Source: an uncultured delta proteobacterium (GTDB lineage: Bacteria > Myxococcota_A > Polyangia > Polyangiales > Polyangiaceae). Taken from it: a DNA stretch of 64,000 bases. Positions within the stretch are counted from its first letter, which is position 1, and each line of letters opens with the position of its first letter. Location: positions 288,001 through 352,000 of the forward strand of contig CAWJCS010000002.1 of the NCBI GenBank assembly GCA_963841435.1, written 5' to 3'. The position numbers were made by a program. This document shows, one piece after another, positions 21,001 to 57,000 of this stretch.

Positions 21001-24000
21001 GGGGCGGTGCGTCGGGCAACGGGGGCATGGCCGGCCGCGCGGGATCGGGCGGCAACGACGCGGGAGCCGCGGGCACACTCAATGCGGGTGGCGTGGGCGG
21101 CTCTCGCGGCGGGGAGGCCGGCGGCGCTGGGGCGGGCGGCTCGCCCGGCGGAGCGGGCGGTTCGACCGGAGGTCTCGCAGGCGATGGTGGGGCGAGCGGG
21201 ACCGGGATGGGCGGACGACCGCCCCAGCTCGAGAAATTCGTCGGCAACATCGACACGCGCGGGCAAGTCCGGTCGGACCTCGCCATGTACTGGGACCAGA
21301 TCACGCCCGAGAACGCGGGGAAGTGGGGCTCGGTCGAGCGCACGAAGGATCAGATGAGCTGGTCGAGCCTCGACGCCATGCAGAGCTACGCGAAGGACCA
21401 CGGCATCCCCTTCAAGCAGCACAACTTCGTCTGGGGCAGCCAACAGCCGAGTTGGCTCAACGGCCTTTCGCAATCGGAGCAGCGCGCCCAGGTCGAGGAG
21501 TGGATTCGCCTCTACTGCGAGCGCTACCCGGATACGCCGCTCATCGACGTCGTCAACGAGCCCCCGCCCCATACCACGCCGCCCTACGTGGCCGCGCTCG
21601 GGGGCTCGGGCTCGAGCGGGTACGACTGGATCGCGCAGGCGTTCAAGTGGGCGCGTCAGTACTGTCCGAAGTCGATCCTGATCCTCAACGACTACAACAA
21701 CGTCGAGAACGCGAACGACAACAACCACACGATCGACATCGTGAAGAAGATCATGGCTGCGGGGGCGCCCATCGACGCCGTCGGGGCGCAGTCCCATGCG
21801 GTCACGAATCTGTCGGCGAGCACGGTGAAGGGGTACATCGACAAGATCACGTCCGAGACCGGGCTGCCGGTGTACGTCAGCGAATTCGACATCAACATCG
21901 CCGACGACACCAAGCAACAGCAGGTCATGCAGAGCCTGTTCACCATGTTCTGGCAGAACCCCAACGTGAAAGGGATCACGCTCTGGGGCTACATCGAGGG
22001 TTCGACATGGGAGGCCAACAGCGGGCTCATGAGCAGCAGCGGGCAAATGCGGCCCGCGATGACCTGGCTCATGGACTTCCTGGGGCGCTAGCCGTGGCGA
22101 CGAGTCATTTACGTACCGGGCGCGGGTCGCGCAGAGGTTTCTCATGAGGCATTCCCATTCGAGCTTTCATTTCATCACCTGCTCCGCCGCCCTCGTGGTC
22201 TCGTTCGGCTGCTCATCGCCCGGTGACGACGCGCAGCCGGGAACGGGTGGTTCGGGTCAGAGCGCTTCGGGAGGAACGGCCGGCTCGAGCGTTTCTGGCG
22301 GGGCAGGCGGCTCGGGCGGCGCCGGTGCGGTGGGCGGTGCGAGTGGCTCTGGTGGTGCGAGCGGTGCGAGTGGCTCTGGTGGTGCGAGCGGTGCGAGTGG
22401 CTCCGGTGGTGCGAGCGGTGCGGGTGGCTCTGGTGGTGCGAGCGGTGCGAGTGGCTCTGGTGGCGTCGCGGGCACGGCGGGATCGGACGCCTCCGGCGGC
22501 GCCGGGACGGCCGGGGCTGGGGGGGGCGGCGCCGGTGGTGGAGGGAACGGCGGAGCGGGTGCGGGTGGCGCGGGCTCGGGCGGCGACGCGGGAAAGGGTG
22601 GTGCCGGTGCTGGCGGAGCGAGCGGGGCGGGCGCGGGCGGAACCGGCGGCATGAGCTCGGGCATGTCCTCCGGTTGCGGGAAGGCGCCGACCATCGCGAG
22701 CAACATGTACAACAACGGCTCGCTCATCTCGATCACGGCCGCCAACATGCAGCGCCGGTACATCCTCAACGTGCCGGCCAACTACGACAACACCAAGCCG
22801 TACAAGCTCATCATTGCCTTTCATCAGCTCGATGGAAACGACAAGCAGATGTACGCGAACGGCTACTATCACCTGCTCAATCTGTCGAACAACGAAGCGA
22901 TCTTCGTGGCACCCAACGGGCAAAAGAACGGCTCGCCCTGTACGACGACTGGGAACGGAGACGGAGGATGCGGGTGGCCGAACTCGAGCAACTCGGATAT
23001 CGCTCTCGCCGATGCCGTCGTGGCTCAGATCGAGGAGAGCTTCTGCATCGATACGAATCGGATCTTCGCGACGGGCTGGAGCTACGGAGGCAGCATGTCG
23101 TACAAGACCGCCTGCGAGCGAGGGCTCGGCGGAACGAAGGGCGGCGTGGCCGGCTACATCCGTGGCATCGCCGTCTATTCGGGAGCCCAGCTCAGCGGCA
23201 ACTGCACCCCCACGACGCCGGTCGCCTACTACGGCTCGCACGGAACCTCGGATTCGGTGCTGAACTACGACGGCGGGGTGACGCTCTCCCACAACTTCGC
23301 CACCGCCAACAGCTGCACCTGGGCGACGCCCACCAAAGCGACGAGTGGTCACGTCTGTACGGACGTTGCGGGATGCGCGAACGGCTATCCCGTGAAGTTC
23401 TGCTCCTTCGTCGGTGACCACACGCCCGACCCCAGAGACAACGGTCAGCAGACCAGCTGGGAGTATCAAATGGCCTGGGACTTCATCAGCCAGTTCTGAG
23501 GCGTCTTCTCGAACCGCTCGATCCGCGACGCGCCCGAAGGCACCACCGCCCGTGGTGATCAGGCGCCTGCCCCGCGGGAATACCTCGAGCGGTGGTGCCA
23601 AGCGCCAGCGCGGGGCCACCTGACGGTGCGCCCAACCCACTGTTTTCTTTGCAAATTGGTTCCAGGCCCTCCCATGGGCGCAACTTTTGAACGATCTTTT
23701 TTCTGCCCCTCGAACCGGGTTCCGTTCGTCAGAACTCGTGCTACACAAAATGCTCTTCAACCAAATCGCATCGGAGCCCTAATCATGTCGTTCGCTTGCA
23801 GCCGGAAGGACTTTCTCACTCTGCTCGCTGGGTCGAGCACCCTGGTGATGCTCGGTTGCTCGAGTAACTCGGACGACGACAGCAGCACGGGCGGTGGCGC
23901 GGGCACAGGCGCTACCGGCACCGGCGGCGCTGGTGGCACGGGCGGCGGCGCCGGCACGGGCGGAACTGGCGGCGTCGGCGGAACTGGCGGCGTCGGCGGA

Positions 24001-54000: not shown

Positions 54001-57000
54001 CGCATCCTTTACCGCGTCGGGGCGGGCTCCGTCCGGACCGTCGTCGTGAGCGACAAGGGCAAGGTGTACGTGGACCGTACCGACGAGGGCAAGGAGCCGC
54101 CGCACGTCGTGCTCGCCACGTACTTCGCTCCGAAGGGTGACTTCCGCGAGCCGCTGCTACGCTCGCTCTTCGAGTGACGGCGACTCACCCCGGGGGCCTC
54201 GGTCCAGCGCGACGCCGGCATGACGCGAGGCGTCAATCCAAGCCCGATGGTGCGACGCCTTCGGTGCGACGCCTGAGCCCCGCAGACCCCGCTTGGTCTC
54301 ACTTTTCGCAGGACGTGTCTCATTTTCTGTGTCAAGGATCTAGGGTGAAAAGTCAGAGAATCACTCTTGATGTAGTCGGGGGAACATGCCCGACCGCTCG
54401 GTTCTGACTGACACGAAGCGGCGCCCTTTCTTGGACGAACGCTGACCTCCGGTGCTCAAGTGAACGTCTGCGGCATCTCGATCCTGACCCGAAAGATCCT
54501 CGTCACCCGTCAGTCCGGGTCCGACGCATGGGGTCAATTCTTTCGTGACGTTGCAAGGTCCCACAGAAGCTTTCGTTCGCTGATCACCGCCGACACGCTG
54601 ATCCCATTGCCCGCCTACCTCGCTTTTCACGACGAGCTCATGCGGCGCTTCTTCAGGGAGACCGACGTCTCGCACGTCAAGCTCGGGCGGGACTCGAGCC
54701 GCTGGGCCGTCGGTGATGGCCCGCTCAAGTCGTTCGCGCAAGGGCTCGACCTCGGCGGCGTCGTGGACGCGCTGCCGAGGCTCCACGGGCTCTACTTCCG
54801 GGATGCAACGACTCGGTCCGAAGCCACGCTCACGGGCCAGAGCGTCGAGTTCAAAGTCTTCGACTTGCCGCAGTGGCACCCGTACTTCGAACATTTCATC
54901 GTTGGCTACATCGCCGAGATTCTCGAAATGTTCTGCGCGAATCCAATCCGGACGGTGCGGCTTCGCGGAGGCGCGGGAAAGGAGTATCACTATCTCTTCC
55001 ACGGCGCGCCGACACAGGAGGACGCGCCATCCTCGAGCCGCGATCGCAGGGCCGCCCTCGCAGAGGTTGGGCGCCACCTCTCCAACCGAGAGACCGAAGT
55101 GCTCCTGCTCGTCGCGCACGGCAAGACGAACGAGGAGATCGGCGAAACGCTCGGCATTTCCCGGAAAACTGCTCAGCACCACGTGGCGCGCGCCTACAAG
55201 AAGATCGGCGTGTCCAATCGGGTCGGCGCGGCAGTATGGCTCGCCGAGCGCGGTCTCGTCGGCGACTAGCGACGGGTCCTCGGGCGCTCGCGCGACGCCT
55301 CGGGGGCGTTCGGCGGTGCCCGCGCTTCGCGCTACGGCAGCGTGAACTTGCTCAAGAAGGTCCAACCGACGGTGGCGTCGCCCGCGGCGTGCATGCCCCC
55401 TTGCTTGACACAAAGCCCGACCTGGACCCCGGAGTCGCATTGCTCGTAGGTGGTGCACTCGCCGTCCATCGTCGTTGGGGCGACACAGCCGTCGAGCCCG
55501 GCCCAACGCTCGAAGCTCGCTTGCGCGCCGAGGAACGTGATGCGACCGCTCGAGCCCTTGCCGCCGGCGAAGGGAACCACCGTGTCGCCCGTGCCGCGGA
55601 AGGCAATCACGCTGATGGGGCGCGACGGCGCACACGGTTCTTCCGCTTCGACCAGTAGATCGAACGCCGACGGCGCCACCGCGGCGAACACGTCGGCCGC
55701 ATTGCAGGCGAGGAAGTGCGACATGCCCCCGCCCATCGAGAAGCCGACCGAATACACCCGCAGCAGGTCGACGCAGCCGTCGCTCGCGATGGATTGAACC
55801 ATGCCCTTCGCGAACCCCAGATCGTCAACGTCGCGTGAGTTGGTGCAGCAGGGGCCGATGTTCCAGGCGCTGTCGATGCCGTCCGGGAATGCGACCAGAA
55901 ACCCCTCGCGGTCGGCGACCTGTCGATACCCCGAGCTCGACTCCTCTTGCATGCCGCTCCCGCCGAGCCCGTGGAAGTCGAGGACCAGCGGGACCGGAGT
56001 CTTGCCGTCGTAGCTCGACGGGACGTGCAGAATGTAAGTGCGAGACGTGCCGCCGATCATCAGTGTGCGGTTGTGGTCGCCCGCCATGAGCGTCGACGTG
56101 GTGCAAGAGCTCTGGCCGGCGCTTCCGCCAGTCCCGCCTTGCCCGGCGGAGCCCGCATCGCCCGAGGCACCAGCGGCGCCCGCACCGCCGCCACCCGCGG
56201 CTCCAGACCCTGCGCCGGCGTCGCCGCCCGCACCGTCGCCGCTCGCGCCACCGCTACCGCTGGCCCCGGACGCGGCGCCCGCGGAGCCCGAAGCGCCGGC
56301 GCCACCCGCACTCGCGCCTCCCGCGCCACCGAGCGCGCCCGCCGCGCCGCTCACGCCGCTCGACCCTGCCGCCGAACCGCCCGCGCCACTCTGCGCTCCG
56401 GCACTTCCTCCGATGGCCCCCGTCCCTGCGATCCCACCGCTGCTCGTCGTACCAGCCGGAGCACCCGCATCGCCGCCGTTGCTGCGCTCCTCGCCGCTCG
56501 AGCACGCGAACGCCAACAACGCCGCCGCGAGACCGAACGACAGGCCGCGACGGCTCGCACGACGATTCGAGATTGGCACGATTGACACTCTGCGTAGGGC
56601 GACTCATCCCGGCAATAGGCCGGTCGGCCCCCGCGGCGCGTTCTGCATCACGACGCTCTCCCGAACGGACCTTCGAATGGAACGAGCACCGGAATTGTTC
56701 ACCGGCGGCGGCACGTCACGTTCGCTTCGCGACGATGCCGCCGGCGACGGACGTTGCACGCGTGCGCTTGCCCCAGCGTCAACTGGCCAAGTCGTGCTCG
56801 ATCAGCCAGACCGCTGCGCTGGCACGGCTCCGGACCCCGAGCTTGTCTAGGATGCGGGCCACATGGACTTGCACCGTTCGCGGCGAGATGCGCAGCGTAG
56901 TGGCTATCTCTTTGTCCGATTTTCCCCGAACGAGCAGCTGGGACACCTCGAGCTCGCGCCCCGAGAGCCGGTGTAAGCTTGCAGGCCCCACGCGATCGGG

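Follow-up and report, generated by a model that had tools for sequence, protein, structure and literature searches.

Carbohydrases that combine a lipobox with a long linker are already known from Saccharophagus degradans. In proteins such as Chi18B the lipobox is followed by a low-complexity linker, which in Chi18B has about 110 residues, and by a glycoside hydrolase, and in the passages of PMC2386152 and PMC3124978 on these carbohydrases the authors interpret the arrangement as outer-membrane display. The linker there is polyserine, it also occurs between modules, and 34 lipobox genes are described. For the E. coli lipoproteins RcsF, NlpD and Pal, the part of 10.1101/2021.01.05.425367 on linkers reports a dependence on disorder and length but not on sequence, and according to PMC5736177 RcsF length can be co-tuned to an envelope distance. 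As described there, the E. coli linkers are much shorter than those found here, are carried by envelope-maintenance proteins and serve Lol sorting or trans-periplasm signalling. In M. xanthus a type II secretion system (T2SS) route takes MYXO-CTERM proteins to the surface and a disordered region adjoins the anchor in TraA and MXAN_4924; the passages of PMC11980579 on these proteins mention no tether common with N-terminal lipoproteins and no length rule. There is little description of how cellulolytic myxobacteria keep enzymes on insoluble polymers in the absence of cellulosomes, and the main text of a myxobacterial CAZyme survey (PMC12093494) never uses lipoprotein, linker or signal peptide.

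We analysed a window of 64,000 nucleotides (contig CAWJCS010000002.1, positions 288,001 to 352,000) from the genome of an uncultured member of the Polyangiaceae, in which Gly-rich tethers are concentrated. The tethered genes of the window, in window positions, are listed below; the two given last lie outside the span of the first-pass annotation.

20724..22091, +, GH10 xylanase lipoprotein; Cys 20799, 135-aa Gly tether 20811-21215
22144..23499, +, CE1/Esterase_PHB-type esterase lipoprotein; Cys 22210, 163-aa tether; best PDB match feruloyl esterase 8jh8, E 2e-35
23785..24363, +, lipoprotein-like ORF of signal and tether with no cargo; Cys near 23857, GGTGGV-type repeats over about 165 aa
26423..28835, +, GH39 and CBM6, then C-terminal Gly tether and MYXO-CTERM (28722-28826); frame changes near 28450
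28898..30659, +, GH30 lipoprotein; Cys 28946, 119-aa tether; frame changes near 29730
34141..35391, +, probable GH12-like domain with 128-aa tether; weak PDB match to xyloglucanase, E 0.007; Cys present, signal start unclear
35443..37197, -, GH30 lipoprotein; Cys 37140, 122-aa tether
38972..40384, -, SMP-30/gluconolactonase propeller lipoprotein, not a CAZyme; Cys 40306, 144-aa tether
40809..42773, +, GH39 beta-xylosidase-like lipoprotein; Cys 40899, 88-aa tether
42929..44722, +, GH30 lipoprotein nearest BT3312-type beta-1,6-glucanase/glucosylceramidase; Cys 43001, 127-aa tether
44932..46674, +, GH30 endo-beta-1,6-galactanase-like lipoprotein; Cys 44989, 117-aa tether
46994..48772, +, GH30 glucuronoxylanase-like lipoprotein; Cys 47057, 140-aa tether
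48864..50729, +, GH30 lipoprotein; Cys 48933, 126-aa tether
51038..52556, +, GH8 Rex-like oligoxylanase lipoprotein; Cys 51089, 149-aa tether; frame changes near 52450
55332..56579, -, CE1/Esterase_PHB-type esterase lipoprotein; Cys 56504, 135-aa tether; best PDB match feruloyl esterase 9j07, E 6e-27
11737..13446, -, arylsulfotransferase-like lipoprotein, non-CAZyme cargo; 119-aa tether
14995..16449, +, BNR-repeat protein; 52-aa C-terminal Gly tether, GCGCR, transmembrane segment and Arg tail (resembles MYXO-CTERM by eye; absent from the TIGR03901 matches)

All recounts were based on our own gene calls (6375 genes), with a tether defined by 25-aa windows of at least 32% Gly and at least 76% G+S+A+T over at least 40 aa. 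Genome-wide, 466 genes had a lipobox followed by a tether and 55 had an N-terminal tether but no lipobox call; the tether was C-terminal in 33 and internal in 12. The first-pass annotation had counted 463 proteins with an N-terminal tether of 65-165 aa (median 113 aa), two thirds of them behind a lipobox (317/463); our recount gave a similar 389 (median 110 aa), with the lipobox share rising to 364/389 (94%). That annotation started the locus at 21027, inside a tether, and truncated gene starts therefore probably hid lipoboxes. The proteins have a signal peptide that ends in a lipobox with the invariant Cys (SPII), as assigned by pattern rather than by a trained predictor; the rule was satisfied by chance in 52/2839 cases (1.8%), and 393 of the 466 passed a stricter version. 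The bin C2:300-350 kb, which holds this locus, indeed ranked first among 50-kb bins with 16 tethered genes (next 15 and 14). The tethers were nearly uncharged, consisting of Gly 43%, Ala 19%, Ser 14% and Thr 9% (an initial set of our own, n=302) with Lys+Arg 1.1% and Pro about 2%; from composition and length, a disordered segment of more than 22 aa is predicted after the Cys. In 12 tethered lipoproteins the cargo was shorter than 40 aa. The tether works like the polyserine linker (PSL) but is not one, as serine runs of that kind are not found; compared with Saccharophagus, it is made of Gly/Ala/Ser/Thr, occurs in about 500 genes, mostly adjoins the anchor, carries mostly non-CAZyme cargo and is combined with two anchors.

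The second anchor is MYXO-CTERM, which accounts here only for a C-anchored minority. TIGR03901 gave 24 matches over cut-off in the genome, including the tail of the window GH39 (26.1 bits, cut-off 20), and a Gly tether lay directly ahead of 17 of them (16 of the 23 mapped by script and the frameshifted GH39), much as in TraA and MXAN_4924. The 33 C-terminal tethers were mostly ahead of an anchor of this type, so that the order anchor-tether-cargo of 466 genes is mirrored in 33. They matched the N-terminal ones in make-up (Gly 43%) and, for CAZyme-like cargo, in length (median 141.5, n=6, vs 136, n=31; p 0.62), and either anchor was found on GH5, GH27, GH39, GH43 and esterases. The genome also encodes a GspD (458 bits, cut-off 351) within a gsp-like operon at C6:571-585 kb, whose neighbouring genes resemble gspC-E-F-G by eye.

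The combination of lipobox, tether and cargo was confirmed, but it is broader than first claimed, since the tether is not CAZyme-specific. CAZyme-like cargo was found in 33 of 140 sampled tethered proteins (24%), in agreement with the earlier 104/463 (22%); the other 107 did not resemble CAZymes, and DUF1592/1588, with 33 members, was the biggest of the tethered families. An earlier odds ratio of 14 for CAZymes was inflated because the comparison genes were mostly cytoplasmic, yet enrichment persists among lipoproteins at about 5-7: Pfam GH/PL/CE matches occurred in 23/140 tethered and 6/150 untethered lipobox proteins (OR 4.7, p 6e-4), a value raised by false lipoboxes in the control (SDR, aldo-keto reductase, IstB). 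With lipobox-tethered proteins only the OR was 4.6, counting esterases 7.3, and minus the window's own tile 4.4. In a whole-genome search of six families, tethers were found in GH5 2/9, GH43 6/9 (among them gene C4_133804), PL1 8/11, GH9 0/3, GH3 2/7 and GH13 0/11. The statement that half of the CAZymes are tethered (104/229) holds for wall-degrading families (18/39 without GH13), while all six together gave 18/50. Solute-binding, OmpA, L,D-transpeptidase, amidase, ApbE, redoxin, BamB-like and 3D cargo, sorted by hand after inspecting the matches, made up 0/140 of the tethered and 17/150 of the untethered proteins (p 1e-5). It is here, in reverse of E. coli, the envelope-housekeeping lipoproteins that are without a tether.

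Tether length varied with cargo. It was about 135 aa for CAZymes and 67-98 aa for other cargo, and CAZyme/esterase cargo increased from 1/46 at 40-79 aa to 7/41 at 80-119 aa and 25/53 at 120 aa or more; counted per family, lengths were 137 and 99.5 aa (p 3.5e-5), with ranges of 117-140 aa for GH30, 44-55 aa for DUF4215-type and 47-104 aa for VWA. What appears to be newly described is that tether length seems to be regulated per genome, without conservation of the sequence (identity 0.44 for 29 homologues vs 0.42 when shuffled); no account of such length matching turned up in our look-ups, and it is absent from the Saccharophagus descriptions in the relevant passages of PMC2386152 and PMC3124978. 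Distant GH30 pairs within one genome (21 pairs, 13 genomes, tree distance at least 1.0, own genome and Sorangium excluded) differed by 10.4 aa vs 34.4 aa when shuffled (0 of 10,000 shuffles), and GH30 and other-CAZyme tether lengths were correlated (rho 0.75, p 0.002, 14 genomes), although kin share lengths, so that genomes and pairs are not independent and these p values overstate the matching. The difference to the nearest relatives in other genomes was 24.4 aa. Across genomes, tether length spanned about 25-175 aa, with 70-81 aa in Sorangium. Little DNA was shared between tethers, as a common 30-mer was found in 6/499 vs 2 in the control; 21-24-nt words were mildly in excess (262 vs 204; 58 vs 35), from which some exchange or slippage is possible.

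Based on the architecture, the two anchor types, the cargo bias, the length pattern and the T2SS genes, all of them shown here, we consider it probable that the tether is a surface-display spacer with a length tuned to a lineage-specific envelope dimension. It would be a disordered, nearly uncharged segment that joins an exported cargo domain to its membrane anchor, placed on the anchor side whether the anchor is the N-terminal lipid-modified Cys or the C-terminal MYXO-CTERM Cys. After Sec export and Cys lipidation, the protein would arrive at the external side of the outer membrane, with the T2SS as the probable route; from there the catalytic domain could reach through the surface layer to insoluble polymers and free products beside the cell. 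Selection would act on length and disorder rather than sequence, tethers being longest, here at about 135 aa, on polymer-degrading enzymes, and each lineage would have its own set length, most simply one matched to an envelope dimension such as the thickness of its LPS, exopolysaccharide or surface layer. The earlier proposal of flexible lipid-anchored stalks displaying enzymes is in line with this in that the stalk carries many polysaccharide enzymes; it is not reserved for them, and surface exposure is predicted. Against a spacer count the six sampled lipobox CAZymes without a long tether, GH9 with 0/3, the 12 tethered lipoproteins with hardly any cargo, the dependence of tether Gly content on GC and the other linker types of some relatives. 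By a polymer estimate, 135 aa of Gly-rich coil would on their own have an rms reach of only 6-10 nm vs a contour of 49 nm, and a longer reach would need tension or glycosylation. More tentatively, and with the balance of our judgement somewhat against it, the Polyangiaceae tether may be a proteome-wide, sequence-free molecular ruler, in which dozens of unrelated surface enzymes with either anchor converge independently on a lineage-set length (about 25 to 175 residues) that clears their own envelope layer.

The E. coli finding that disordered linkers also help Lol sorting, in the same part of 10.1101/2021.01.05.425367, counts against a spacer and favours a tether that is the myxobacterial disordered N-terminal linker for Lol-type (or T2SS) lipoprotein extraction, with its length set by the machinery and cargo on either side of the outer membrane. 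There, linkers of more than 22 aa are reported in about half of the outer-membrane lipoproteins and a GS-repeat of similar length substitutes a natural linker; Asp at +2 was rare here (1.5%), and a single sorting machine per genome would likewise yield a single length per genome. The tethers are however several times longer than that 22-aa threshold, the same tether precedes MYXO-CTERM, which takes another route, OmpA-type and solute-binding lipoproteins have none, and lengths differ twofold between cargo classes within one genome, so that we regard sorting as an unlikely main role. Rather more doubtful is a lipid kept in an inner leaflet, with a thin Gly/Ala/Ser chain that crosses the periplasm or runs through a channel in the outer membrane and whose length matches the intermembrane distance. 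The small side chains, few Lys, Arg and Pro residues and 49-nm contour would suit such a chain, a longer RcsF compensates for a wider periplasm (PMC5736177), and a per-genome length is accounted for; nevertheless, a channel would be required for each of several hundred proteins, and in our judgement about 25 to 175 aa among relatives seems too broad for periplasm width.

We give similarly little credence to near-neutral expansion, in which any floppy linker serves and slippage or indel bias of the genome sets the growth of GC-rich Gly/Ala codons. A 15-nt word was repeated at least three times in 83/499 tethers, Gly content followed GC (rho 0.52) and tethers without cargo occur, but Arg and Pro are kept out although GC-rich, the family ranges are narrow, and length did not track GC (rho 0.17, p 0.21). 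Least probable, and only barely credible to us, is a protease-sensitive or vesicle-display segment that lets the enzymes work away from the cell. In its passages on TraA, PMC11980579 suggests cleavage in the disordered region adjoining MYXO-CTERM, and TraA is reported there to be secreted as well; counts of tether 4-mers, a coarser approach than a dedicated motif search, revealed no conserved cleavage motif, and release makes a matched length unnecessary.

With a surface-display spacer, candidate surface proteins could be recognised by the tether in their sequence, including the 67/140 sampled cargos that had no Pfam match and fell outside the esterase family. As a natural example of selection on nothing but the length of a disordered region, the per-genome matching among distant paralogues would be unusually clear-cut. 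If the tether is in addition a ruler, envelope thickness could be read from the genome, and a changed thickness would force many genes to co-evolve.

The first-pass annotation had further proposed 28 fungal-type feruloyl esterases in a plant-cell-wall specialist. We found 27 members, 26 of them tethered, with a median identity among paralogues of only 31%. Feruloyl esterase identity is partly supported: the best PDB matches are feruloyl esterases (8jh8 and 9j07, which we take to be fungal), the alpha/beta hydrolase fold is common to these CE1 enzymes, PF10503 and the esterases here, and homology together with a G-x-S-x-G nucleophile motif in 24/27 agrees with CE1. The esterases also match PF10503 and PHB-depolymerase models, stay below cut-off in NCBIfam, score 49-129 bits against NF050058 (cut-off 150), and have many homologues that one source annotates as PHB depolymerase. 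The GH30 at 42929 scored 150 bits with the BT3312-type endo-1,6-beta-glucanase model (cut-off 700) vs 45 bits with xylanase XynC, and three paralogues in the window either share 55-66% identity with it or group with it; fungal glucan is therefore a possible substrate. GH6 was enriched in the genus as reported (22/25 genus vs 8/40 family genomes at E<=1e-30), and the genome had 0 condensation domain matches and 8 KS matches in 6 ORFs, in agreement with the absence of NRPS and six KS genes. As 18/40 family genomes likewise gave no condensation domain match at E<=1e-20, this absence says little about lifestyle; the specialist role is only partly supported. The tether design is not peculiar to this organism, as cultured Sorangium has the same lipobox-tether design at 11/12 loci, which makes direct testing feasible. 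Some relatives have Thr/Pro or Asp/Ala/Pro linkers.

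A codon model gave 6375 genes in the host genome (7.78 Mb, 68.7% GC, 95% complete), and because called starts often fell within the tether, the scan for lipoboxes and Gly-rich segments was run over the entire stop-to-stop frame. Close homologues carry Polyangiaceae or Sorangium labels, which places the host among the Polyangiaceae myxobacteria. The genome-wide census contained 466 proteins with a lipobox and a tether, 55 with an N-terminal tether without a called lipobox, 33 with a C-terminal tether and 12 with an internal one. Gly (43%), Ala (19%), Ser (14%), Thr (9%) and Pro (about 2%) made up the tethers of an initial set of 302, and Lys and Arg together accounted for 1.1% of tether residues. 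The first-pass annotation had placed most tethers behind a lipobox, and this was borne out for 364 of the 389 N-terminal tethers of 65-165 aa, with a chance rate of 1.8% for the lipobox rule. It had also described this part of contig C2 as the densest cluster; the bin at C2:300-350 kb indeed ranked highest, with 16 tethered genes compared to 15 and 14 in the next bins.

Between 20.7 and 56.6 kb of the window, which lies on contig C2, we found 12 CAZyme-like genes whose catalytic domain comes with a tether 88-163 aa long and with a signal or Cys; six of them encode GH30 and two an esterase, and GH10, GH12-like, GH39 and GH8 domains occur once each. A second GH39 has the inverted order, with a C-terminal tether and MYXO-CTERM. 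Tethers were also present on a lactonase-like propeller and on an ORF without cargo. Solved relatives of four of the window enzymes point to xylan and arabinogalactan as putative substrates, and the GH30 at 42929 was closest to a BT3312-type beta-1,6-glucanase and to glucosylceramidases. A single-sequence AlphaFold model of a GH30 lipoprotein had a mean pLDDT of 36, too low to inform on structure. The reading frame changes in three window genes, near 28450, 29730 and 52450, probably through assembly errors; at three apparent frameshifts per 64 kb, gene counts for the assembly may be affected. Other features of the window were as follows.

Window 1-6667: cluster of GH13 genes of glycogen/trehalose type
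Window 16535-20311: cluster of small lipobox proteins that lack long tethers and have YtkA, multihaem c554-like and PSCyt1 domains
Window 23785-24363: cargo-less tether lipoprotein with GGTGGV repeats, whose signal recurs once more, in a short copy, at about 24550-24730

The genes at 1-6667 are presumably GlgE-like, TreS-Mak-like and GlgB-like. Genome-wide, 12 genes with lipobox and tether had less than 40 aa of cargo, and these may be structural leash proteins or broken genes.

Cargo was sampled from 100 evenly spaced 20-kb tiles out of 386. We compared 140 tethered cargos with Pfam, leaving out three that were too short and one internal case, and used as control 150 of the 155 untethered proteins that passed a strict lipobox rule. 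GH, PL or CE families were matched by 23/140 tethered and 6/150 untethered proteins (OR 4.7, p 6e-4), an odds ratio still inflated by some false lipoboxes in the control. With ten additional members of the esterase family the tethered count rose to 33/140, and with lipobox-tethered proteins only the odds ratio was 4.6, or 7.3 counting esterases. The enrichment announced previously is real among lipobox proteins, but amounts to between one third and one half of the claimed odds ratio of 14. In six whole-genome family searches 18 of 50 genes were tethered, or 18 of 39 without GH13, for which the count was 0/11. Non-CAZyme cargo included DUF1592/1588, VWA, arylsulfotransferase-like, DUF4215, cytochrome c and Kunitz domains. 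A further 67 of the 140 cargos, all outside the esterase family, had no Pfam match. The largest tethered family comprised 33 lipoproteins with DUF1592/1588/1585/1587/1595 and short tethers of 40-94 aa (cluster 0, e.g. L024:15583-17124). Sixteen tethered proteins carried VWA (L039:13244-14314 and cluster 2); one of them weakly resembled the gliding lipoprotein CglB (30 bits against a cut-off of 200). Hand-sorted envelope-housekeeping domains were found in 17/150 untethered and 0/140 tethered proteins.

The tether is shared by two anchors. It directly preceded 17 of 24 MYXO-CTERM matches, had the same composition as at the N terminus and, where the cargo was a CAZyme, about the same length (141.5 vs 136 aa), and several cargo families contained both anchor types. 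In Myxococcus xanthus, according to sections of PMC11980579, the T2SS sorts MYXO-CTERM proteins to the surface and a disordered region adjoins the motif. A GspD above cut-off was present within a gsp-like operon of our genome. Among the indirect arguments for surface display, this two-anchor/T2SS pattern is the best. Besides the T2SS operon, Tad-like and PilMNOPQ-like secretin clusters were seen by eye at C2:397-412 kb and C5:143-150 kb.

Tether length differed with cargo, with medians of 135 aa for CAZymes, 141.5 aa for esterases, 67 aa for DUF1592 proteins and 98 aa for the remainder, a difference also present family by family. The tethers of esterase homologues (n = 29) were no more alike than shuffled ones (identity 0.44 vs 0.42). 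Among the best 80 of 263 GH30 loci, 54 had a lipobox and Gly tether, 16 another linker or domain, five were cut and five lacked a lipobox; in cultured Sorangium, 11/12 loci had a Gly tether of 70-81 aa. When 84 GH30 domains were placed in a tree, paralogues of the same genome were scattered over different clades. Their tethers nevertheless differed by only 8-12 aa whatever the tree distance, compared to 33-43 aa between genomes; loci without lipobox, cut loci and those with Cys-rich inserts were left out. When this genome and Sorangium were excluded, the gap was 10.4 aa against 34.4 aa shuffled at distances of at least 1.0 (21 pairs, 13 genomes; 0/10,000) and 12.1 against 34.3 aa at distances of at least 1.5 (11 pairs, 7 genomes; 7/10,000), p values that overstate the case since kin share lengths, so that the matching is a lineage-or-genome effect. 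Example pairs are 23/32, 87/90, 159/160 and 175/177 aa. GH30 tether length also correlated with that of other CAZymes of the same loci (rho 0.75, 14 genomes), with outliers that included esterases at 74 and 82 aa. One genome (L182), where the linkers of both GH30 paralogues are very short at 23 and 32 aa, offers a natural test case for short tethers. There was little support for matched lengths arising mainly by gene conversion, DNA sharing among tethers being slight, or for GC content as the cause of length, which did not track GC.

Passages of two papers on Saccharophagus degradans already describe carbohydrases with a lipobox and long linker (PMC2386152, PMC3124978), and effects of linker length in Escherichia coli lipoproteins are treated in parts of 10.1101/2021.01.05.425367 and PMC5736177. 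Gly tethers in Polyangiaceae and per-genome tether length were undescribed in the literature searched (titles and abstract openings, with subscription papers and supplements outside the scope). The novelty comes from the length rule and not from the CAZyme count.

We favor, as the probable explanation, a spacer for surface display, adjusted in length to an envelope layer that is specific to the lineage. The cargo would be exported, the anchor Cys lipidated and the protein passed through the T2SS, with tether length matched to an envelope dimension. By polymer estimate a plain coil of 135 aa has an rms reach of about 6-10 nm and measures 49 nm fully extended. A sorting aid is an alternative that we hold to be unlikely. 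Near-neutral expansion appears quite improbable, and the same applies to a leash that spans the envelope. That the tether is a release device seems very improbable.

The view of a plant-cell-wall specialist was examined in related genomes. GH6 was present in 22/25 genus genomes and 8/40 family genomes, as would suit a genus of polysaccharide degraders. As stated before, condensation domains are absent from the genome and its KS ORFs number only six; the lack of NRPS was rejected as a lifestyle marker, since 18/40 family genomes likewise gave no condensation-domain match. For the proposed expansion of feruloyl esterases, a family of 27 members, the best PDB matches are feruloyl esterases and the family libraries give PHB-depolymerase models. 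A myxobacterial CE1 expansion has been reported, in part of PMC12093494.

In a phylum-wide search the GH30 family occurred in 1/60 other genomes, too few to trace the spread of the tether. We sampled regions of 60-120 kb in relatives, of low power and including several contigs picked for their match to an esterase query that held part of the tether, and counted 4, 9 and 2 Gly tethers in three genomes of the genus, none in either of two small genomes of the family, and 2, 0, 0 and 1 in representatives of four further families of the order. In some of these last genomes Asp/Ala/Pro linkers took the place of the tether. Linkers rich in Pro/Thr, Pro/Glu or Asp/Ala stood at the tether position in some relatives (loci L157, L165, L169, L186, L187 and L008; genomes G025, G037 and G038).
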